Source of the DNA: Chrysemys picta bellii | Taxonomy: Eukaryota | Direction of reading: 5' to 3' | DNA length: 64,000 bases | Assembly (NCBI RefSeq): GCF_011386835.1 | Contig: NC_088797.1 | Location: forward strand, 41,726,001-41,790,000 | Shown here: in pieces, positions 5,316 through 27,558 of the stretch | Layout: each line of letters begins with the position of its first letter | Position numbering within the stretch: position 1 is the first letter of the stretch | Made by a program: the position numbers and the translations under genes | The notes under the pieces: model-generated | The model's database searches: none | What the model saw: only the letters and a program-made list of their open reading frames with translations | Told to the model about the DNA's origin: nothing

Positions 5316-8300
5316 TAATACAGTTCCAGATTAAACAAAACATCAATATTTTGAAGAGAAGAACATGCTAAAATGACTTGTTCAAGAAGTGAGCACAATG
5401 AATAGTAATTTCTTATTGAGGCATTTGCTTTCTTTGATTCAGATCCACTTGTCTTTACTGATTGGGTTTCCCATGTAAGACAGGCAGCTCATTTGCAAGT
5501 AAACAATTTGCATCCAAAGTCCTCAAATAGGGACTTTCATACTGATATTCTTGAACATAATTTATGTCTAATTAACAATATAGCAATGTAATTAAAGTAG
5601 CCATTCTGCTTTCACACCTTTTCTATTAACTATTCTATATCTTTGCAAAACACAATTGTAGCACCAATGACAATCCCTGTTAAGTGAGTTCAAGTTAACT
5701 TTATAATAAACAGTTCTATAAATCATGGACAGAAAAGAATTCCTAGTTATAAAACATTAAATAAAATTGATTGACTACCACCTAAGCAAAAGATTGTGTG
5801 ATTCTCTACCGTGGTTGATAGCCTGGTTACCAGTCCTAACTTCATTTTCTTCCATGTAATTTTTAAGGACTCAATTCAGCAATCTATTCCTGCTCACAGA
5901 ATCACCTAACCACATACTTAAATCTTCAATGGAACTTAAAAGTATTGCTGACTGGGTATGAGCTTAAGCATGTGCTTAAATACCCACCTGAACTGGGGCC
6001 TTAGAGCTGCTGTTGTCCTGTAGATGGTCAAAATAATCAGTTTTGGAAGTTGGAATATTGATTTATTGATCACTACAGGTGAAGGCTAATTAGACTGCAC
6101 TTAGGTCAGCTTGCTTCAGTTCTGGAAGAGCATGTTAAATCTTATTTGTCACTCATGGAAGAAGTTAAATCAGGGACACAATGCTGGTGACAATACCATT
6201 TAGAGATTAATTGAAGGATATGCTGACTAATATAAGTAAAAGCTGAACGGAATCATAATAATTTCTGAGGCAGACATCTTAAAGTGTGCTTCTAAGAGAA
6301 TCTTTTTTAAAATAAACCAAAATGGCCCCATCATGCTCAGACATTTTTCCTATATGTATCCAGAGTTTCTGAACTTACTCCAGGAATTAAAACCAGCTTT
6401 TACCATCATTTACTGCTTTAGCGCTATAGAGTCAACAATTAATAAGAGAATGAGCTAGCTTCTATTCCACCTTCTGCATCATCAAAATTATTTAAGAATT
6501 AGTGATATTCAATAGCATCAGTGAAAATCCAGCAAAGGCAACAGGTTAGCACAGGTGTAGCCTAGGAGGCAGAACTTGGCATGCAATATCTCAACTACAG
6601 ACAACAGTGGGTGAAAAAGAAAGTACCCAGATCCATTTCTAGAGCCCAAACAGAGTTAATGGAGCTGGCAGCTTATTTAATAACATCAACAAAAGTTTTA
6701 ACCCAGCACATTCCATATCAAAACTGGGACACAAACATGGAACTCCAAAATGCTATTTTATAAAGTCACCTTTCAGAGCAAGCCCACACAAATTGTGTGG
6801 GTGTTTGCTTTTTACAATTTGTCAGATGAGAGGGTTTTTAATGTTGAATACAAGTGTCTATGCACCATTACACTCCAGTGATTAATTTTTCCATTGGAAA
6901 TCTCCACCCTTTCCTGATTTGACATTTCTCATTGACAGTTCTGATCAATCTTCTGCAGAGTAGCTTATTCCTACAATATGCTCCTTGTTTGGGTTTAAGT
7001 CCGAGGCATTATTCTAACCCCCTTTTAATCAGAGGTCCCTCTATTTTACTATATTTTTATCCTTGTATAAATCTTACTTCTATTAGAGAAGAGAAGGATA
7101 TTTGTGGTGAGTAGCACCATCACAAGCCAAATATCACTGGGAGACCACTTCTAAACTTCAGGAATAGCCTCTGGCAAGGCTCACACTTATCTGCAAATCC
7201 TCAGTTCCAAGTATTATTATCGGCATTCAGAAGTGAGGTTTACAGAACTCTCTTGTCTACCCAGCCAGGTCAAAGAAATGTCCTAATTTCTCAGGCTGAT
7301 TTGAGAAATATCCCAGGATATCCCACTGCCCAAACTCTTAATTTAAAAATACATGGTACATGTTTTCTTTCCTACTACACAGGATACATCAAGCTTTCTT
7401 ATAGCTGTTTGCAGGTTTTATATGCTTACTACATACACTTTTAAAAACAACAACCATCCATTTAATGCCAGGTGCTGAACCAACAACAGTTGAAACTCCT
7501 TTTTACCTAAAAACAAGGGTAGAAGAGATAGTGGTAGTAGTGGACCTTCCCCGTGCTGCCATACCAATGTGCCTCAACTCTGATGGATAGCAACAATAGA
7601 CAAAAATCCTACTAGTGGTGCTGCTAGGTTCCTAGAGCTGCCTTGCCCACTCCCCGCAGTGGAGAGGGAAAAGTTGCCCAGTTTCCACTGTCAGATGTTT
7701 ATTCTGCTGCTTGCCTGCCTCCTGCTTGCTCCAACTCTAGGCAGACCCAGGAGCAACACATAGGAAGGAAGTCACCTGTCTAGAGTAGAAGCAAAAGAGT
7801 ATTGAGTAAGGGACAGACACAACAAGGGTTAGGATGGGGGGTGGAAGCAGCAGGGACTTGGGTCTGATGAGGTCAGGCAAGAGCAGAGCTGCCAAGGAGT
7901 GAGGAGGAAGGAAAAAGTAGGTGATATGAATGGACTGTGTGGATGGGTTTCAAAAGGGGCAGGGCTTGTTAAGGGGCACTTCAGTTATATAGCTAATTTA
8001 TGCCTGGTTTCCCATCAGTATATTGTTATGGCCCTGGGAATACCCACAACATGGGTGTGAGAAATGACATTAAATCTCCGAGTCAATCCAGTCATTCTGT
8101 TTTGTTTGCCAAAAATGCCAAGAAATCATTTAAGTTATGCTTATCACAGAGGAGCCATGTATGCAGTGGTTATCTATCTTATAGGAACTGAGCTGACATT
8201 ACCAACTCTTTCTGCACTGGTACTCAAAAGCCACACAAACATGGCACTGCAAAAATAATCAATATCAACAATTTCACATGGTAGTTTCCAGTTGCTATTG

Positions 8301-11145
8301 AGCTACGTTTGATCTGAACCAGAACTAAAAAGCATGGGATTACAGTAACAATCCCCTATCCTCTAAGTGTGACTCTAACCATTTTTCCAATTTAAAGTTA
8401 GCCTGCACTATGTATTTACTGATGTGGATAGTTTTCATATAAGTAGTTTTATTAAGATTAAAGCTTCCAAGAGAATTGTATGGCTCAGGAAACAGGTAAT
8501 AGGACATAGAGCTTTTCACCTCCTGTCTGCTGGATGAAATCCATCCCAGGTAAGTAAGGACAAACGTTGCTACCATCTGATTGTTCAACAGACTAATTAA
8601 TGGTCTCAGCCTAGTTCTCAGGGTAAAAGGCATCCACATATTGACATTAATTCTTGCATCATTGGCAGTCCCAAAAGAGAAGATGAGTGTTGCATGGGCC
8701 ATGGTAACTGAATTCCCCCAACTCCCTCATCAATGGAAATGGTCCCTCCAGCTGAGCACTGATGGCAAGCATTAGTAGGGGAACATGAGGAGGTTTGTAC
8801 TGTAGATGTCCATGCTGAAACTCTTTTGTGGTTAAAGAGAGGGCTTCGGAACTATTCAGCCAGTGCTTTACACAAGCAGCAAACTAAATCACCAACACAT
8901 GAACTTATTTTAAAAGATTAAAACCCATATTTTGTCATATGGTTTTATTAACAGTGTCTTACAAATGTACGGTCAGTAAATGTGAATGTCCTTAGCTTGC
9001 AAAACTTCAATTAAAATAAACAGGCTTCTATATAGTGCATAACTATATTCGCAAATGAGAATCAAGTTGTATTTATTTTCAAGCAATGTACAAGGGACCA
9101 ATACAAAATAAAGCCAATAAAGCAAAAGTGGCAATCTAATACAGCATTAGTAGTAGTCTAGTAGCTGGTCAAATGTAACTTGATTATCACACCATAGTTT
9201 AATAGCACTTAGTCCTTTCTGTGTAATTTTTAATACATGGAAACTGAGACTATTTACTTTTCCCTGAGGTACAATGTGAAAATCATTTAAAAATTAACAA
9301 AATGACCTGTTCCTACAAATACTGTAGAGCTGAAAGAGCTAAAATCTGTAGCGATTTATAGCCTGTCCAATCCCATTGACATATAGAATTAATATCCCAG
9401 CAGGCTTAAAAGAACTAGGGTAAGACTGGAAATTTCATGGATTTCATGCCTGTCTTGCTGACAGAAGTTGGGTATTTTTCTACTGGGAAGGGCATCTTCT
9501 CAAAGAGAGTAATGAAAACAAACACTTTCATTTCTCCCAAGAGAATGAGAATTTACAATATCGTTTAGTCTTCAGAGCATCCCTGATTCTGATGAGTTTA
9601 GGAAGACAGAGTGAGTTTTTTATAATAAATACTATGACTAAATTAAACAGAAGTTGTAGGGAGTTTGGGCTGGAATTTCGAACCTGTAACAAAGAAATGT
9701 CCGTAGGCACAGATGGAAAAGAGACACTGGCCAAGTGGATGAAGACTTGAGATATCCTCTACACTTGAGGATTTATATGGGCAAAATCTATTACATGAGC
9801 ACATGGTCGTGTGTTGTCTGTCTTAAATATTAGCAATTTCCTTATTAGGGATTTCTCAGTGGTAACAGCTCCCACCTCATGGACTTGAATTCAAATATAT
9901 AGACCAATGTACTTAAACATCTTTGAGGATCTGGGCATTAGGGTTCAAAATAGTAGAAAGAATCATTTCCCCTCTATCATTTTGAACCCTAATGGCCAGG
10001 TCCCCAAAGGTATTTAGATGCCTAACTCCTATTGAAAATCAGTGGAAGTTGGGCACCTAGGTACCTTTGAGGATTTGGACCTTAGCGCTACCAGTCCATG
10101 TTCTGCCTCAGACTATCATCGGCAGTCCCTTTGCGGTAGTTGGGTCCTGACAGGTACATTAGCAGTTACACAAACAAGCATTATGAAGTGTTTGATGCAT
10201 GAATGCCAGAGAGTTGCTGTAGAAACAGCTGGATAACTTAAGAACAGGACACAGTCGCAAGACAGGGTATTTGGGGGGCTATCAATATGTGCTTCACCTT
10301 TTGAACAATGACAGTGAAAGGGCTTTGAGGACCTCAGAACAATGTCTGGGGTGGGGTGTATTTATTTGCTTTACCTACTCTCCCCAGGCAGGAAGAGATT
10401 GCCATCCTCATCCTGATGCTGACCACAAGGTGCATGAGATCCTGAGTGGGAGATAAGACTCATTCTCCACCAGGTTAGGTGGAAAAAGGTGAAAAAGCTC
10501 CAGGTTCAGTTGAGCTACTGATTTGTCTCCAATAGGGATGATCCTAAACACTCCTCAACCCTCAGCTTTGTGAAAACTTCAGTTGACTTCAAACAAAGCA
10601 GAAGGGCATAAAATTGTATGCCAAGTCCCTGCTTAGGCAGAATCTCTGGTGCTGAACTGCTGTCAGCATGCAGCGATAACCATGTTGAAAGTCCACCGAT
10701 ACCAGACAGTTAGCTAGGCTGTCTGAACAGATACCAGTTAGAATTTTGCAATGGTGACAAATATTTTTAACACTTTACGTTTAAGATGGGTTTCTTCCTT
10801 GTGACTTTTGGGGTACAGTGAAGTAAATAAAGTAATTACCTGTGATTTTACTCTGCTGAGCAGGGATTAACAGTTAGCTGGATGCTTTGCAAGTATTTAA
10901 GTGAAACTTGGACTTGGAACAGCACTCCTGGGGAGTATAAGAAGTCTAGAAGCTACTAAAGACCCTGGAACACTGCTCAGTAAAGCAACTGATGAACCTC
11001 CTCTGATCTAAGCATAAAGAATCTCTTCGCTCTTACATGGTTGTAAATCAGAAGTTATTCCAATGAAATGTATGGAGTTCTGATAGTATAAACTTAGCAT
11101 GAAAGGTGAATCAGGGCTCTTGTCTGAATTCTTCATAAATTAGGG

Positions 11146-11198
11146 TGTGACGGTCCACGCTCCTGGGGTCAGGGCAGCGTGGACTATCAGTCACAGTC
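11146..11198 (-). repeat. 53-bp inverted copy of the LTR right (U5) terminus
   Basis: The reverse complement GACTGTGACTGATAGTCCACGCTGCCCTGACCCCAGGAGCGTGGACCGTCACA matches 13379-13431 with 2 mismatches and ends in the terminal CA. Confidence 0.95.
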
Positions 11199-12547
11199 AA
11201 CCCACCCGGGACGAACCAACCTTATGAGCCATCATATCGCAACGACGCCCGGCCAGAAGGTGAGGGACAACCATCAACCGCTGCCCCAGAAGATGTGGGC
11301 CACGATATGACAGGAATTGGATACGATGCTGGAGATGGGCGTGGTCGAGGAGTCAAAGAGTGAATGGCACAGTCCAATCGTTCTGGTCCCAAAACCCAAC
11401 AGGACCCCCCCCCCCCCCGATTCTGTATCAATTTCCGGAAGATGAACACTATCTCGCGGTTCGACGCGTACCCAATGCCATGGGTGGAAGAACTCCTAGA
11501 ACGACTCGGGGAAGCGAAGTATTTGTCAACACTAGATTTAACCAAAGGGTACTGGCAAATCCCCCTTACACCAAATTCCCGGGAAAAAACTGCCTTCCCA
11601 ACACCATTCGGCCTCTTCCACTTTGTAACCATGCCGTTCGGGTTACATGGGGCCGCAGCGACTTTTCAGCAGCTGATGAATAAGCTCTTGCTATCTCATG
11701 ACCGATACGCAGCGGCATATATAGACGACATTGTGGTCTACAGTAACAACTGGAAGGACCACCTCAGACACCTCATGGGGGTCCTCCAGGCCCTCAGAGC
11801 AGCCGGACTCACGGCCAACCCGGCGAAATGCCATCTCGGACAGGAAAAGGTGACCTACCTCGTGTACGTCATAGGGGAAGGGAAATTGCGCCCCAAATCA
11901 ATAAGGTGCAAGCCCTTATGAATACACCCACACCCAAAACAAAGAAGCAAGTGCGCCAGTTTTTGGGACTGGCCGGGTACTATCATCGCTTTGTACCAGA
12001 CTTCGCATCCCTGTCAGACCTGACGAAGAATTCTCAGCCGCGACAGGTACTGTGGTCCGATCCGTGTGGCAAGGCCTTCAGGATTCTGAAAGAACGGCTC
12101 ACGCAGGAACCGGTCCTGCGGCACCCCGATTTTACAAAGGAATTCATACTCCAAACGGACGCTTCAGAGGTAGGCTTAGGGGCAGTGCTCTCCCAAGAAT
12201 GGGAGGGGGAGGAACACCCGGCACTGTATCTGAGTCACAAATTATTTCCTCGAGAGCAACACTACTCAATGATAGAGAAAGAGGCCCTGGCCGTGAAATG
12301 GGCTATGGACGCCCTGCGCTATTATTTACTGGGGTACACCTTCAAATTGATCACTGACCATGCCCCCCTCAGATGGATAAACAGCATGAAAGACGCAAAC
12401 CCCCGAATCACGCGCTGGTACCTGTCACTCCAACCATACGACTTCCGCGTGTTTCATCATCTGGGTAAGGCTCATGCTAACGCGGATTTCTTTTCTAGAC
12501 AGGGAGAGTATGATGGGGAGACGTACCGCCCCGGGGGTCCTTTTTAA
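11199..12547 (+). pseudogene. Retrotransposon reverse transcriptase + RNase H (frameshifted)
   Basis: Begins THPGRTNLMSHHI...ELDTMLEMGVVEESKSEWHSPIVLVPKP, then RFCINFRKMN, LDLTKGYWQIP, MPFGLHGA and AYIDDIVVY. RNase H motifs are FILQTDASEVGLGAVL, EKEALAVKWA and LITDHAPLRW. Confidence 0.95.
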
Positions 12548-12558
12548 GGGGGTGTGTG
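12546..12558 (+). other. Polypurine tract preceding the LTR
   Basis: AAGGGGG(TGTGTG) lies immediately after the pol stop and directly before the TGTGAC LTR start. Confidence 0.7.
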
Positions 12559-13431
12559 TGTGACGGGGCCGTCTTACCACGCACTAGCCCTGACAGGGTT
12601 AAGTCCCAGGTGTTGACAGCGGAAGTCCTGCCTCCCTGGCAAGACTGGGCATGCTCCAAGTGCTCTAGTAGTATAAAGGGTGGGAGACCGTCTCATTCTG
12701 GGCTGGAGACTGCAGGGGAAGGACTTGCCTGGGAAGCTCCTGCAGGGGGCCAGCCACAGCCTCTGACTACGCCGGGAATCGCAGCCGTCCACAGCCCGCC
12801 TGCACCCCAGCGACTGGAGATGACTGGACCTGCCGAACACAGGGGAATCGACGTCTCATGGGAAACCCCATCACAGACTCTGGTAGGAAGTGACCCAGGG
12901 AGGGTGTCGGAGTGGTACCTCCCACCCAGGGAAACTCAGCGTGTTTTGGCAGGACCCCCCGCTTAGTCAGTGGCAAGCAGCTACGCCACTGTTAGGGCCC
13001 TGGGTCGGGGCCTGGTGGAGTTGGGTGGGCCCGGCCCCCCTACCGGGGCAGCCACACCCCAATGCTATAGACTCTGGCCACTAGGCCACGCTACCCTGCC
13101 CCAAAGAATCACTTTATGGACTCCGGCCATTAGGCCCCACTGCCCTGTAGCAAAGGGTGGCGCTATAGACTCTGGCCACTAGGCCACGCTGCCTGGCACC
13201 CAAGGGTGGTGCTATAGACTCTGGCTGCTAGGCCACGCCGCCCTGCACTGAAGGGGGTGCTATAGACTGCAGCCACTAGGCCATGCTGCCCTGCGCTGAA
13301 GGGCTGCTTTATGGACTGTGACTGATAGTCCACGCTGCCCTGACCCCAGGAGCATGGACCATCACAGGCTGCTTTACAGACTGTGACTGATAGTCCATGC
13401 TGCCCTGACCCCAGGAGCGTGGACCTTCACA
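12559..13431 (+). repeat. LTR of the Gmr1-like element (873 bp)
   Basis: Termini TGTGACGG...CCTTCACA, with the PPT on the left and the PBS on the right. TATAAA occurs at 12672-12677 and tandem ~49-bp units fill the 3' part. Confidence 0.9.
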
Positions 13432-13433
13432 CG

Positions 13434-13451
13434 TGGTGGAGAATGTGGGCA
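13434..13451 (+). promoter_or_regulatory. Primer binding site complementary to tRNA-Ala(AGC) 3' end
   Basis: TGGTGGAGAATGTGGGCA starts 2 nt after the LTR end. It is the reverse complement of ...TGCCCACATTCTCCA+CCA, recalled as a vertebrate tRNA-Ala(AGC) 3' end. Confidence 0.85.
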
Positions 13452-13519
13452 ATGCCCGGGACCTGCTGAAAGGTCCAGTGCAAGGAATCTAGACGGCGGG
13501 AGCCCCACCGCCATCTAAG

Positions 13520-14600
13520 ATGGATACAGAGAAGCTTCTAAAGTGGTTGCTGGAGAATCAGTAAGAGCAGGCGGCCCAACAGCGACAGCAGCAGGCTCAC
13601 ATGATGCAGCAGATGGCCAGCCAGCAGCAGTTGCAGATGACCCAGCACCAGGAACAACAGCAGCAACTCCTTTGAGAGCTGGCTGCCTAGCAACAATTGC
13701 AACAGGAATGCCTAATCCAACAAGTGGCAACTTTACTGCACACGCTGGGAGCTCCAGCCCCCACACCTACAGGAGCGGGATCTGGAGAGGCTCCAGTGGG
13801 GCTGCCAGTTCGCCTCACTAAGATGGGACTAGGCGACGACCCCGAGGCATTCCTGGTCACGTTCGAATGGGTCACCACTGCTGCTCGGTGGGCCCCAGAA
13901 CACTGGGCCACCATGCTAGCCCCTTATTTGATGGGACAGGCAGAGACGGCTACCATAACCTTGATCCCTGAGAGGCTTTGGAGTAACCCCGGGTGAAAGC
14001 GGCCATTTTAGACCAGACCAGCATTAGCCCTGAGACGTACCGCCAGCGCCTACATAAAGAACAGTATCCTCCTGGGGCTCGACCTTGGGCCATGGCCCAA
14101 CGGGTACAGAACCATTGTTGGAGATGGTTGGAGCCAGAAGGCTTGACTGGACCTCAGGTGGCGGAGATGATGGTGCTCGAACAGTTCACCCAGATCCTCC
14201 CGGCAGGAGGGAAAGCATGAATGCAACATCACCGGCCGGCGACCTTGTCAGCAGCCGTGGGCCTGATGGAGGACTACTTGGCGGCCGAAGGAGCCGAGGC
14301 AACCCCACGGAGGTCCAAAAACCTGAGCAGGAATCTCCACCCAACACCAGCCCCAAACCCACTAAGCCTCCCAGCCCCGAACCCAGGCACAGAGTTCCGC
14401 GGACTCCGATTCGAAGGGAACGGCCCCCACAAGGGGGGCGGAGTCCGCCAAGGGAAGGCCTTGGACCCTCGGAAGGCCGGAATCGCTGCTGGGAGTGCGG
14501 ACAAGAGGGACATTTCCAACGGGAATGCCCCTTCATGGATTGCAACTATGGGCAAGTGTGGGTTGCCGGACACAGAGCCCAGAAAAGGGGGCCAGGCAAA
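13520..14600 (+). pseudogene. gag with Gln-rich N-terminus, SCAN domain and CCHC zinc knuckle (stops/frameshifts)
   Basis: MDTEKLLKWLLENQ* is followed by a Q-rich stretch, then KMGLGDDPEAFLVTFE. A SCAN-like ETYRQRL...CWRWLEPE...MVLEQFTQILP...AVGLMEDYL spans about 14030-14285, and CWECGQEGHFQREC is at 14487-14528. Confidence 0.88.
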
Positions 14601-14852
14601 TTAGTGATCCCTGTGCGGGTCGAGGGGACCCCCACGAATGCTCTTGTGGACTCAGGATGCAGTCAGACCCTCTTACGGGAGGGGCTGGTCCCAGATCTTA
14701 GACTTTCCGGGAAAAAGATACACCTACAATGTGTCGATGGGGACATCCGCCCTTACCCCATAGCCTGGGTGAGGATCGGGATTGGCCAGCGGGAGGAAGT
14801 CCTCCACGTGGGCGTAGCCCCCAGATTGGCTGACCCCATAGTGCTGGGATGA
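14601..14852 (+). pseudogene. Retropepsin-type aspartic protease
   Basis: ALVDSGCSQT active-site motif, ending in the IVLG(*D) motif. Confidence 0.9.
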
Positions 14853-15229
14853 GACTGGCCAGAATTTAGGGAGATCCTCCAGCAGTATCAACCACCCGCT
14901 GCACAAATGGAAGGGGCTACGTCTGCAGGAAGGGGACTCCTCGGACACACACCGGAAGCAGATCCCGGGGAAGGGACGTCTACGGTGGGGAAGGCACCTG
15001 CTAACGCCCGACATCCCTCCGTGGAAGACGCGCAGACAGAGCTGGAGCGGGATATTGACTTTGTGAGGGAGCAGAGAGAAGACCCGACTCTGAGTAGGGC
15101 CTGGGAGCAGGCCACCATCCCCAGCCCTGGAGAGGACACCTCTCCGAGACCTCCGCAGGGGCCTCGGTTTGAGATCCAGTGGGACCGCCTATATCGGGTG
15201 GCTCGGGAACCACAGACACCGGAGCCACT

Positions 15230-16310
15230 TCATCAGTTGTTGGTTCCCCGGAGGTTGCAATGAGGCCTCCTACAGGTATCGCATGCAAACCCACGGGCAG
15301 GACACCTGGGGCAGGAAAAGACCCTTCAGAGGGTGGCCCGCCGATTTTTTTGGTCCGGCATTCACCAAGAGGTCCGGGAGTATCGCGCGTCTCGCCTGGA
15401 GTGCCAGCGGGCCGGACCAAAGGGTATACCCTGAGCCTCATTAATACTCCTACCCATGGTTGGTGTACCCTTTGAAAGCATCGGAATGGACTTGGTTGGA
15501 CCCTTAGACAGAAGCAAGACAGGGAACCGATTTATTTTAGTGATCGTGGACTACAGGACACTTTACCCCGAGGCTGTTCCCCTCCGTGCAGCTACGGCGC
15601 CAGGGATTGCCGCCGAACTCGTGAAGGTCTTCGCTAGGGTGGGGATACCCGCGGAGATCCTGACTGACCAGGGGACTAACCTATCCTCAAAACTGATAGC
15701 TGAGCTGTGCCGCCTCCTGAACATACGGACACTGCAAACGTCGGTTTACCGTCCACAAACAGACTGTCTAGTGGAGTGTTTTAATGGTACCCTGAAGTCC
15801 ATGTTGCAGAAGTTCGTGCAGGAAGACCCCAGCCATTGGGATACACTATTGCCAGCCCTACTGTTTGCCATAAGGGAGGTACCCCAAGCATCGACCGGGT
15901 TCTCACCCTTCGAACTTTTGTATGGCAGGCAGCCCTGAGGAATCCTGGACCTCCTGAGGGAAGACTGGGAGGCACAGGAGTCGCGAGTACTTGGGACCAC
16001 TCAGTATGTGCTACGCCTCCGAGAACGGCTCCAAGCCTTGGAAGCTTTCACCCGGGAGAATCTGCTGTGGGCCCAAGAGACACAGGAATGGGTATATAAT
16101 AGAGGGGCTAAGGTAAGGAGTTTTGACCCGGGGGACCAGGTGTTGCTCTTGTTGCCCTCGGCCGACTCAAAGCTCCTGGCCAAGTGGCAGGGGCCTTACG
16201 AGGTGATCCCACGGGTCGGGCCCGTAGATTATGAAGTCCAGTTACCCGGACGACGGAGGGACACTCTGACTTACCACGTGAATCTTTTGAAGGCATGGAA
16301 GGCCAGGGAG
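15230..16310 (+). pseudogene. Integrase (HHCC, rve core, GPY/F-type C-terminus), disrupted
   Basis: PFESIGMDLVGPL, ILVIVDY, ILTDQGTNL, YRPQTDCLVECFNGTLKSML, KLLAKWQGPYEV and YHVNLLKAW. Confidence 0.93.
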
Positions 16311-19300
16311 GCCTTATTCATCATTCCATCGCCCCTGGACCCAGAACTGGGACCACTAGCTGGGGAACCCCTAGACTCAAGGCAGGCTACACTTGGGACC
16401 AACCTCACCACAGCACAGCGGGAACAAATATCGCAACTCATAAAGGAATTAAACAGAGAAGATAGGATTGGGGACCCCAAACTCTTCAAGTGAAGTTCAT
16501 ATTAAACAATGACTTTCTCCGATGAAAGCACCTGACTGGACTATTATAGAAGGAAAAACAGCAAAAATTCTGCCATGAGAAGAAGGAACATTTCTTGGGA
16601 ACTTGAGAAACAATATCTTATGTGGCATGAACATGAGCTTGAACTTAGTTCAAAACACATCTAAAAACGAAAGGATTCTCTCTGTTTCTGTAAGAGTACC
16701 AGCTGAAATGCAAAGGGATATCTTGGACCACCCTCCCCATGGAAACAAATGAAGGCTTCATTGGAGAGTTGGACTAAGAGGTAGCTTTCCTGGATGATCC
16801 AGAAGTTCTCACCACCTCCACTATGAACAGAGAGGTACCCAGAGGGAACCTATGGAGACAATGCAGTCTTGATTTTGTAGACATGAAATATCCTGATGCA
16901 TTTTATTAAACCTTGAAAGATCTTGTTGAAAATAAAGCCACGTCTCCAGATTACCAGGAATGTTTGCCTGATATACAGTATCAGATGCCAGAAAGGCCAT
17001 ATTAGAATGAGAATACAGGGGAGGCTCTTAACTTTCTCACTCATCTGCAGTATTAGCTTGTATTTATTAAGGATATTCTGAAAATATTGCTGTCAAACTG
17101 CAAGGACTCAATTATCTAAGTTAACTGGCAAGTTTAAAGTCCTTCCACTGTTGTACAGGTCAGGGGTAGTTCTAAGAAAAATGTGTCTACTGTGTGGACT
17201 TTCTGACTCTTTTGCTGGGTTATAATCTGTACATTGCATCAGTCCGTTTTGTACTGCATACAGTACATCTGTATGACATATGTACACACACATGTCTTTA
17301 GCTTTGTGAGTGAAAAAGGAATTTGGAATTTGATACTGAATTGTTACACAACCAAAATTTATCCATCAAAGTATTTTTCCAGTTTTGTAGGGTGATTCTG
17401 CTTTTATGAGGTGTTTGTTTCTTTATGTTTCTTGATAGATTAATCAGCATTTTAGAACAGCTGTCTTAAACATACTTATCTGATGAAGTTAAGAAAGGCT
17501 TTTTTTAAACAGTTGAGTCACCAAGAAGGGACTTTCCAAGTTGTGCATTAGTGGAGTATGATTAAGACACAAACATTGATTTTTTGGACTCTGCATCCTT
17601 TTTGGTCTGTACTAACATACATAAATAGACCTAATAATTGAGCATACCCTGATCACTCTGGAGAAATGAGTCCTTCTGCTTTGCCAGAACAAGGAGTAAT
17701 AAAGTTTTTAAAACTAATAAAATATTGAAAGGCAATTAACATATTGTGCTAAATTCTATCCTCTAATACAGATGAGTTGAAGAATACTCCAGGGATGAAA
17801 ACCTTGATCCAATTAGTTCAGTGAGAAAACTCCCATTGACTTCACTGGGCCACAATTTAACGTCAGAACTCTAGTAGCATAGTATCTAAAATATTCCAGA
17901 AAGAACTCTGTCCAAAATAAAATCTAAAAATATTATCGGGATTGATGCATATAAAAATGACAGCTTACAGTACACTGGTCTGCAAACTCATGGAATCATA
18001 AATTAGAAGTGGAAAAGACACATCACCGCTGAGTTCAGAACGATTCACAGTTTACAGATTCACTTACTAGTGTGTGGTCTAATATGAACTGAAATGTCCC
18101 ATGCAAAGAGGCCTTCAACTTTCATTCAGGGACTTCTCTGCTGTTTAAAATATATGACTATCCAGAAGCTTTGGGATCTCAAATATTCCCTGATACTTCT
18201 GACTCCATGAATCATGCTAAATTCCTCTCCATCCTTGATATTCACACCCACCAAATATTTTCAGAAAACTGTAACCACTTTGCATCTTCATCACCATTAG
18301 GCACTCTATCTAGCACATCTCTAGCTCTCTTTAATTTTTCCGTTCAACCCTAAAATTTATATAATTCTTTTCTGAACTCCCTCCAGTTTGCCGATAACTA
18401 GCTTGCAATGTGATGCCCAGAAAGGAATGCAAAAAACCAGGGTTGAAATCCTGACTCCACTAAAGTCAATGACAGTTGTCCTCCATTCTATGAAACCTCT
18501 GCATATCCATCTCAAAACTGCATTGGCTCTTTTTTTCTGCCATATACATGAAGCACTCTATATGCAATAAACGGCATAAAAGTATATTGTATATGTAATT
18601 AATAAAGCTACTCACCACGGTGGTCAACTACTGCTTTCTCGAACATACCTTTTTTTTTAAACCCAAAACTATAATGCTTAGAATACTGAAAATGGCCAGA
18701 AGCAGTTTTTGTCAGCTTCTTGCATTAGTCAAAACAGGTCACTTTCACCCTTGCATGTCTCTTTTTTTTTTTTCTGAAAAGTCTGACTGCAAACTATCAA
18801 TAAGCACTTTTCCAGCTGGGACTTTTCCAATCACAACATAAAATACTCAGAGCAGTGACGCTTACTCTGCTGCACTGAACATGATGTTAGATAAAATTAG
18901 AATAGAAGTAGGCAGCGAATGCCTTCAGTGGATGACTACTTCGATAGCATAGACACACCAAATATTACAGAAATATATTACCCAAGGATCAATGGTATCT
19001 ATACATCATCTGCCTAACATCCTCTGATGTACCTGTAGTGCAAAATCTAGATTACAATGTGACTAACAAGCATAGTCCCTACAAAACTAAATAGTGTGGC
19101 TTTGGCATTTATTTATGCTGTTAACATCTTCTAGGTCCAGGATGTTCAGGTTGATATGTTTTCAATAACTAATGAATTTTAAGTAACCCCCCTTCCTCCA
19201 TCTCAATCGCCACACACATTTCCACACAGTCTTCTTTGGTAAATAATCACTTGACATTTGACAGAACCAAGCAGAAGGCAAACCCAAGCAAGAAAGCCCA

Positions 19301-24566: not shown

Positions 24567-25234
24567 ATGCCCACTGCCCCTTCTTTGTTTCCTTGCCCCT
24601 ATACTGAATGGGCAGGACTAAACTGGGAAAATAGGCAGTGTTTAAAAATGAGTTTGCTAACATGCTTGAACTATCACGGTTTTCAATACAACCTATTTCC
24701 TAGTCTGGACAGGGTGGGTCAATGTCATATCCCCATATTCCATTCTTCCCTCAGGTATAGGCTTTAAAGAGGGAAATTGCTCTATTGTATAGTAAGCAGG
24801 GCTGTGGGTGTATTTTCCAGCAATGTGTCTTTTGGTTTTCACCCTCTCTCATAGCCTTGAGACAGAAACAGTTGCTGACTCTAGGCTCCTCAGAGCCTCA
24901 AACCCCTCTCCTGTTTTTGCTGGGAGTGTGATTTGCATCTAATGCTGGAAGAGCTGTATGGATATTTAGCTGATGGCCTCCTTTCACATTATACCCTTAG
25001 CAGCACATCCCGAGGTGGCACCTCATTTCTTATGTAAAGTCTTTTGATTGAAGAAGTTTGGATAGGTCAGGTAGTTTATTTGCATTAGCACTCTGGTTTC
25101 CGTAGGTCTACAGCATATGCGCCCTATTCCCATAGTAGCATTTTGGTGGTCTTGCTATGTAACAGGAAAGCCACTTCCAGCTCACACTGGAAATACAGAA
25201 AGTAGCATTGATGGCAATGTTTTCACTGCAAAGA

Positions 25235-25489
25235 AAACAAGGAGTCTGGTGGCACCTTAAAGACTAACAGATTTATTTGGGCATAAGCTTTCGTGGGTAA
25301 AAAACCTCATTTCTTGGGATGCATGGAGTGAAAATTACAGATGCAGGTAATTTTCACTCCATGCATCTCAAGAAGTGAGATTTTTTACCCACGAAAGCTT
25401 ATGCCCAAATAAATCTGCTAGTCTTTAAGCTGCCACCGGACTCCTTGTTGTTTTTGTGGATACAGACTAACACCGCTACCCCCTGATAC
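25235..25489. mobile_element. Penelope-like element 3' remnant with 5' inversion (fold-back)
   Basis: Two ~104-bp inverted arms separated by an 8-nt loop, ending in the PLE-type tail GTGGATACAGACTAACAC...GATAC. A 13-bp TSD TTCACTGCAAAGA lies at 25222-25234 and 25490-25502. Confidence 0.88.
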
Positions 25490-27014: not shown

Positions 27015-27558
27015 ATGGACACAAAGCAGACATCAAGAATTATAACATTCAAAAACCAGTGGGAGAGCATTTTAATCTCCCCAGACACTCAATTTCAGAC
27101 TTCAAAGTGGCCATGCTTCAACAACAAAAACTTCAAAAACAGACTTCAATGAGAAACTGCAGAGCTAGAATTAATTTGCAAACTTGACACCATCAAATTA
27201 GGCCTGAATAAAGAATGGGAAAGCCTGGGTCACTACAAGAAGTAATCTCCCATCAACTGTTGTGTATGGGCCATCCATCCTGCTGGAATTTGCCTCATTA
27301 GCACTACAAAAAGTAATTTTTACTTTGTTGACATTCACATCTTCTTGTCAACTGTTGGGAATGGGACACATCCACCCTGATTGACTCATTGACCCCCCAC
27401 TTGGTAAGGCAACTCCCATCTTTTCTTGTGCTGTATATTTATGCCTGCCTACTGTAATTTTCACTCCACACATCTGAAAAAGTGGGTCATAGCCCACTAA
27501 AGCTTATGCTCTAATAAATTTGTTAGTCTTTAAGGTGCCACAAGACTCTTCATTGTTT
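27015..27558 (+). mobile_element. Penelope-like element 3' fragment (GIY-YIG endonuclease C-terminus + 3' repeat)
   Basis: GHKADIKNYNIQKPVGEHFNLPRHSISDFKVAML is followed after a frameshift by KNFKNRLQ*ETAELELICKLDTIKLGLNK. The 3' end AAGCTTATGCTCTAATAAATTTGTTAGTCTTTAAGGTGCCAC is shared with the other PLE ends in the window. Confidence 0.9.

Follow-up and report, generated by a model that had tools for sequence, protein, structure and literature searches.

A rotated Ty3 retrotransposon of Chrysemys picta bellii capped by an inverted U5 end, and its possible origin in an integration accident

What kind of event can place a short, inverted end of a long terminal repeat (LTR) between host DNA and the interior of a retrotransposon? 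The question is raised by a locus on contig NC_088797.1 of Chrysemys picta bellii (assembly GCF_011386835.1), which we analyzed within a stretch of 64,000 nucleotides (forward-strand positions 41,726,001 to 41,790,000; this whole stretch is called the window, and its own numbering is used throughout). The locus is a whole Ty3 retrotransposon of the Gmr1 domain order, old, dead and single-copy, whose parts stand in rotated order, and no function is claimed for it. We tentatively propose, as a possible rather than a probable origin, that one germline accident joined two products of the same element, namely an end of the U5 (unique 5') region of the LTR that was cut at a hairpin and joined to the chromosome by integrase, and an opened circle carrying the whole genome.

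Intact copies of the element have the order LTR-PBS-gag-PR-IN-RT-RH-PPT-LTR (PBS, primer binding site; PR, protease; IN, integrase; RT, reverse transcriptase; RH, RNase H; PPT, polypurine tract), with LTRs of the TG...CA type, a tRNA PBS, a PPT and 5-bp target duplications. The locus reads RT-RH-PPT-LTR-PBS-gag-PR-IN and is opened in the linker between IN and RT. Pfam matches placed RT and RNase H at 11364-12547 and a zinc knuckle, protease and integrase at 14058-16490; apart from the zinc knuckle, a 101-aa piece of gag, considered as a candidate SCAN-related gag, matched no Pfam family. The position of IN before RT is that of Gmr1-like Ty3/gypsy elements, a name given here on domain order. 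A PPT before and a PBS after one and the same LTR were found only at the LTR of the locus and at none of the 10 other PBS-bearing LTRs with a located start. When the PBS was used as a query, 6 of the 30 matching loci were tRNA-Ala(AGC) genes. Several unrelated LTR families of the genome (L135-L164) also appear to use this tRNA-Ala(AGC) PBS.

Exactly 13 nt lie between the bases matching 16450 and 11197 in 10/10 single intact copies (14 were fetched; L040-L042 have no linker, and L044 is rearranged there), and the same 13 nt are absent from the locus; therefore, one molecule was opened once. At 16450 there is no LTR end, as the original prediction had stated, and the 5-bp duplication that the family makes is absent from this side. 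The sequence TAGGA at 16463-16467 was considered as a decayed duplication and rejected, as 73-90% of host positions are as good as this half-site and a match of this kind has, by our arithmetic, a chance of about 1 in 5. The opening point was also considered as an integrase target and not used, since it ranked in the top 1-5% in 3 of 5 copies and not in the other 2, with several registers possible. No templated source of the 12 bases after 16450 was found within the window. The right flank was unique in the assembly search, and the left flank gave one paralogous match of 51-69 bp that stops 53 bp before the junction; none of 12 read-through frames in the flanks matched a Pfam family. The first part of the right flank (16451-17040) is purine-rich, with stretches resembling a decayed reading frame.

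At the left junction, host DNA gives way to an inverted stub, the terminal 53 bp of the LTR in reverse complement, which confirmed the original prediction on this point. The stub has 2 mismatches against 13379-13431 and 2 others against 13314-13366, a match not due to chance (E 2e-19 within the window). The prediction had also attached importance to a perfect terminus that the stub retained and the LTR had lost. This distinction dissolved on comparison: because all 4 mismatches fall at CpG sites and a single base separates the stub from each of 8 other U5 ends, the altered terminus of the LTR is, judged from the sequence, ordinary decay by CpG-site mutation after insertion. Identity of the four body segments tested is 90-93% with L033-L036 and L039, against 80-90% with three other copies, and the U5 type of the stub is that of the former subfamily, so that stub and body are, on these resemblances, members of one subfamily. 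The predicted fold of the stub has an energy of -17.7 kcal/mol (z -5.9), and none of 200 shuffles was as strong.

The orientation switches from the stub into the pre-RT linker at 11197-11199, again as predicted, and the 19-mer spanning the joint occurs once in the 2.37-Gb assembly (reversed control, 0). A microhomology of four letters, GTCA, had been suggested there; the shared letters turned out to be TC only. TC is present in 21 of 23 linker loci, and the base preceding it is A in all 23. Pairing of the stub with the linker beyond TC was not special in 18 tests against other TC sites, the fraction as good or better being 0.06-0.69. The 23/23 linker A and these pairing tests ruled out GTCA or any longer microhomology, and with it homology-guided priming. 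A 6-nt match, CTATCA, lies near the inner joint, and the joint is not located there. Integrase joining at a cryptic CA inside the stub was likewise rejected, since the next base follows the LTR and not the linker (23/23).

The host junction was then scored against the target preference of the element's own integrase. Other copies supplied 50 host half-sites for a first matrix (C/G at positions 1 and 5, A/T at positions 7 and 8) and 32 further, independent ones for a second; the rows left out were L086 and L128, near-duplicates of L081, as well as L069 and the U3 (unique 3') side of L114, whose ends lack a shared duplication. (L081, L086 and L128, at G000:C1:356.58-356.65 Mb, are near-identical solo LTRs with the same flanks, that is, a local segmental duplication.) With three training sets, the host half-site at the stub ranked within the top 5%, 29% and 10% of host positions, it outscored sites shifted 1-4 nt into the host, and with the first matrix a density ratio of about 4-5 favoured true sites. 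The stub meets the host at its CA, and the 2-nt spacer expected on a raw cDNA end, which is CG, TG or CA in sister copies, is absent (1 of the 2 bases matches). These features of the sequence favour an integrase-made host junction a few-fold, no more. The earlier suggestion of a one-ended integration, with a repair-type junction on the right, fits the CA join, the absent spacer and the absent right-end duplication, with modest support from target preference.

The LTR of the locus ends twice, its CA at 13366 being directly followed by the last 65 bp of U5 once more. This repeat had escaped the original prediction, which held autointegration to be uninvolved; 13366/13367 is an autointegration-type joint, with the CA end of an LTR on element DNA in the same orientation and no spacer bases. 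Its target, at LTR position -65, ranked first among the 793 LTR positions, both in all 8 variants of the matrix and under the independent set of 32 half-sites. Similar CA-joined U5 repeats were present at 3 of 66 distinct U5 ends, that of the window locus included (66 is a lower bound that comprises the three ends of the window locus and some duplicated loci). In L034 (G000:C9:41.434 Mb), the repeat is 112 bp long, lies in the 3' LTR only (minus strand, 7780-7892) and has a target at -112 that ranked 2-7 of 758 across matrices (2-3 with the later set). In L109 (G000:C1:273.874 Mb), it is 38 bp long (6570-6608), with a target ranked 9-14 of 685. Both loci were excluded from training when scored with the second half-site set, and the combined target ranks gave a Fisher p of about 1e-5 over the LTR and of 2-4e-4 over its last 130 bp. 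From these ranks we infer that integrase probably made the CA-joined U5 repeats. Slippage as the origin of the 65-bp repeat was rejected, there being no microhomology on either side, and flap ligation in gap repair would explain L034, whose repeat is confined to one LTR, and not the target-site ranks.

The copies of the repeats differ at 5/65 (window locus), 14/112 (L034) and 2/38 (L109) bases, in line with the LTR-LTR divergence of 3.2-9.8% in five two-LTR copies, and the repeats are therefore of about the same age as the insertions. Were a U5 end to land in the U5 of its own 5' LTR, the result would be a circle that reads PPT-LTR-repeat-PBS and holds the whole genome, which is what stands in the middle of the locus. 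The molecule in the window would thus be that circle, a form suggested by the rotated order and the 13-nt gap, or would have received the repeat through RNA transcribed from such a circle.

Other loci with short U5 stubs adjoining internal element sequence were looked for, as had been proposed, and one was found, although its stub is in normal and not in inverted orientation. This copy, L040 (G000:C1:139.562 Mb), is a 937-bp mini-element composed of a full LTR, the PBS, 162 bp of leader and, directly after the leader, a 53-bp U5 stub, with the same 5-mer duplicated on both sides. The break lies at -52/-53 in L040 (up to -56 if one CpG has decayed) and at -51 to -53 in the window. These are the only 2 stubs among the 66 U5 ends in searches that are blind to stubs much shorter than 30-45 bp, and both break 1-3 nt outside the hairpin base; by our arithmetic, the chance that two breaks in a 700-bp LTR fall within about 5 nt of each other is near 1%. 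In addition, the 3' LTR of L035 ends 18 bp short at 6727, near the hairpin apex, where it runs into unrelated sequence. Either the nascent minus strand folds and releases after the stem has been copied, or the hairpin blocks trimming, and the same polarity is expected from both. Stubs were not associated with copies having a full outer stem (2/49 versus 0/17, p = 1).

To see the junctions in independent data, contigs of four runs (organisms A-D) were compared over 10000-17600. Contigs leading from host DNA into the stub were obtained in 4/4 runs (27, 29, 29 and 44 bases) and contigs leading from the element into the host at 16450 in 3/4 (33, 22 and 14 bases). The junction, which the original prediction had wished to see in reads, is thus borne out at its outer sides, whereas under a 31-letter bridging rule only X14 qualified for the left side and only X9 for the right. 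Both outer junctions occur together in organisms B, C and D, whose flanks differ at 10/994, 14/1170 and 16/1078 bases, respectively; therefore, the stub and the right junction predate the splits of these organisms. A contig of run X3 joins 11198 to 13294 on opposite strands at a depth of 94 (flanks, 34-45) and probably derives from other LTR copies.

The proposed joining of two products of the element is based on the rotated order, the 13-bp loss at one opening, the CA-joined 65-bp repeat, the hairpin stub, the TC joint and the lack of a target duplication. Two integrase-made U5 joints call for two molecules or for an inherited repeat, because one cDNA has one free U5 end. In a first step, integrase would insert the U5 end of one cDNA 65 bp before the end of that cDNA's own 5' LTR and so produce the circle; alternatively, a parent RNA transcribed from such a circle would have passed the 65-bp repeat on. 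The circle would next be broken once in the IN-RT linker. Of a second cDNA, integrase would attach only one end, the U5 end, to the chromosome, and that end would be cut back, or its growth would have stopped, at the base of the U5 hairpin, leaving a free tail of 1-3 nt. Finally, end-joining repair would use TC to connect the tail with the RT side of the opened circle, and would connect the integrase side with the host.

Several points weigh against this proposal. Its five steps rest on one locus, and no second permuted copy was found. Independent contigs cover the outer junctions only, the stub-linker joint being known from the assembly alone, and among the joints listed from the four runs there was no empty allele, all 4 carrying the filled left junction. 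The resemblance of the host half-site to integrase targets is modest, position 5 being A, as against C or G in 40 of 50 true half-sites. Moreover, since the base of the hairpin coincides with the CA end, a junction lying exactly at CA is by itself no proof of integrase. The targets at -65 and -112 are matching places in the 49-bp repeat and are not fully independent of each other.

Among the other explanations, an error of reverse transcription within one particle survives best, although we regard it as unlikely. A 53-nt minus-strand start would stop after the hairpin, prime the plus strand on the finished minus strand in the linker, round a circular intermediate and stall short of its own start, after which integrase would join the good U5 end and repair the other, the 65-bp repeat having been inherited. 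The top strand of the locus does read as a minus-strand start and then plus strand, the stub begins where priming by tRNA-Ala begins, the 13-nt gap needs no nuclease, and L040 is the trace expected of the same short cDNA jumping onto RNA. However, the pairing that such priming would use is absent beyond TC and the observed site has no advantage over other TC sites, an exact pattern search for the 13366/13367 joint returned 1 match, the locus itself, so that no sibling with the 65-bp repeat was found, and L040 is also explicable as a later deletion. This explanation shares with the proposed joining of two products an integrase-made left junction within a single event, and taking the two together we consider such a junction rather probable.

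Slightly less likely again is the patching of a chromosome break without integrase, for which an opened circle and an abortive start of the minus strand would have provided the two cDNA fragments. Microhomologies of 1 and 2 nt and the lack of a target duplication would suit it, breaks are described as capturing Ty1 replication intermediates with a hotspot at the LTR (PMC11372161, in its account of captured cDNA), and mouse zygotes are described as joining several retrotransposon pieces by 1-5 bp of microhomology (PMC4516963, in its account of such insertions). The same yeast account, however, has 40 of 56 captured LTR pieces retaining cDNA-only bases (PMC11372161), and the stub lacks the 2-nt spacer; the advantage of the in-register half-site over the shifted ones and its density ratio also speak against a break without integrase.

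An origin in two stages seemed to us less probable still. An earlier minus-strand copy or solo LTR would later have been deleted down to the hairpin end, and the gap would have been filled by an opened circle, possibly its own LTR-LTR pop-out. The end of the stub is of the normal integration type, and the hairpin might have stopped resection or formed in a strand under synthesis, L035 being broken inside the same hairpin. However, the other end and its duplication have left no remnant, the near match at 16463-16467 scoring poorly, the two outer junctions go together in B, C and D, stub and body share a subfamily, and a pop-out circle leaves the CA-joined repeat unexplained. Finally, a mis-join of the assembly at the stub-linker joint, which would fit the reliance of that joint on the assembly and the X3 contig linking 11198 to 13294 (most simply another LTR copy), is hardly credible in view of the outer junctions in independent species, the overlap of only 2 nt at the joint and the break point shared with L040.

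The features of the locus are collected in Table 1. Elsewhere in the window, 25229-25456 is an inverted repeat with 110-bp arms, 93% complementary and 8 nt apart, which belongs to a dispersed repeat found also at 27470 and 44951.

Table 1. Parts and joints of the rotated element, in window coordinates
Feature	Position	Strand	Remarks
Host 5-mer TAGGG	11141..11145		Adjoins the CA of the stub; would-be target-site duplication, without a second copy at the right junction
Inverted U5-terminal stub	11146..11198	-	50-nt hairpin and 3 further nt; corresponds to the start of minus-strand cDNA
2-nt microhomology TC	11197..11198		Common to stub and linker
3' part of element: rest of IN-RT linker, RT, RNase H	11199..12545	+	Frameshifted, dead; PF00078, PF17917/PF17919
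PPT ahead of LTR	12546..12558	+	Same position as before the 3' LTRs of intact copies
LTR, TG to first CA end, with 49-bp tandem repeats	12559..13366	+	
LTR CA end joined to LTR position -65	13366..13367	+	Without microhomology; integrase-type target
Second copy of the last 65 bp of U5	13367..13431	+	5/65 bases differ from the first copy
PBS	13434..13451	+	Preceded by a 2-nt spacer at 13432-13433; matches the 3' end of tRNA-Ala(AGC)
5' part of element: leader, gag with zinc knuckle, protease, integrase, linker start	13452..16450	+	Stops and frameshifts; PF00098, PF13650, PF00665, PF22938
Right junction	16450..16451		Element ends 13 nt short of its continuation at 11197; neither an LTR end nor a target duplication

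Cell-culture work and the sequencing of particles have made autointegration circles and one-ended integrations familiar. At this locus both appear to have become fixed in the germline of a vertebrate, and their joints allow scoring against the site preference of the element's own integrase. The value of the locus lies in the signs that extend across the family, the integrase-type U5 repeats at 3/66 ends and the recurrent break at the U5 hairpin. If these were general, autointegration would have left a fossil record in short CA-joined U5 repeats that can be counted, such repeats would be one way in which LTR ends lengthen, and the terminal hairpin would be a source of truncated or non-autonomous elements. 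A bolder and, to our minds, doubtful extension would make the U5-terminal hairpin a built-in minus-strand terminator that releases a portable integrase end of 51-53 nt, with stub capping having made both the window insertion and L040. Autointegration into the U5 of the 5' LTR would then not always be suicide, the whole-genome circle being transcribed, recombined or pasted back and leaving CA-joined U5 repeats in about 1 in 20 LTR ends.

No natural case of the whole arrangement was found in the literature searched, most subscription papers being outside its scope, and we regard the locus as an unusual natural fossil of known chemistry, in which integration accidents of known type appear to come together. 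The intact copies show no departure from the Gmr1-like Ty3/gypsy order, and a rotated order was found only at the window locus. In human immunodeficiency virus (HIV) and avian sarcoma and leukosis virus (ASLV), one-ended integration is described in which the bad end is joined to viral DNA in either orientation (PMC5041404, in its treatment of aberrant proviruses). Like the aberrant HIV-1 and ASLV proviruses of that treatment, the locus has one normal LTR-host junction, a CA junction without the terminal dinucleotide, and a second end that is truncated, devoid of an LTR and joined to the host, with no short target duplication. Unlike them, it is a natural germline Ty3 fossil that involves neither drug nor mutant, and the rotated whole genome is attached to a normal end of only 53 bp.

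Deletion and inversion circles are treated as non-productive or dead-end forms in the portions concerned with circular DNA of reports on Arabidopsis SISYPHUS (PMC7197481), Drosophila HMS-Beagle (bioRxiv 10.1101/2022.09.25.509424) and HIV (PMC3148978), and the last of these, a review, states that 1-LTR circles can be transcribed. Compared with the deletion circles so described, the locus likewise has an LTR CA end on its own DNA, in the same orientation and at an integrase-type site; it differs in that the target is in the U5 of the 5' LTR, the whole genome is kept and the joint is fixed in chromosomes. An inversion circle, which has a whole inverted LTR with both ends on the element, is not matched, since here only 53 bp are inverted and the CA end is on the host. 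The capture of cDNA at double-strand breaks, as far as the accounts in PMC11372161 and PMC4516963 extend, resembles the locus in its several pieces, its 1-2 nt microhomologies, its lack of target duplications and its hotspot at the LTR start, whereas the captured pieces are mostly short and often retain cDNA-only bases, in contrast to the rotated 5.25-kb genome and the clean CA end found here.

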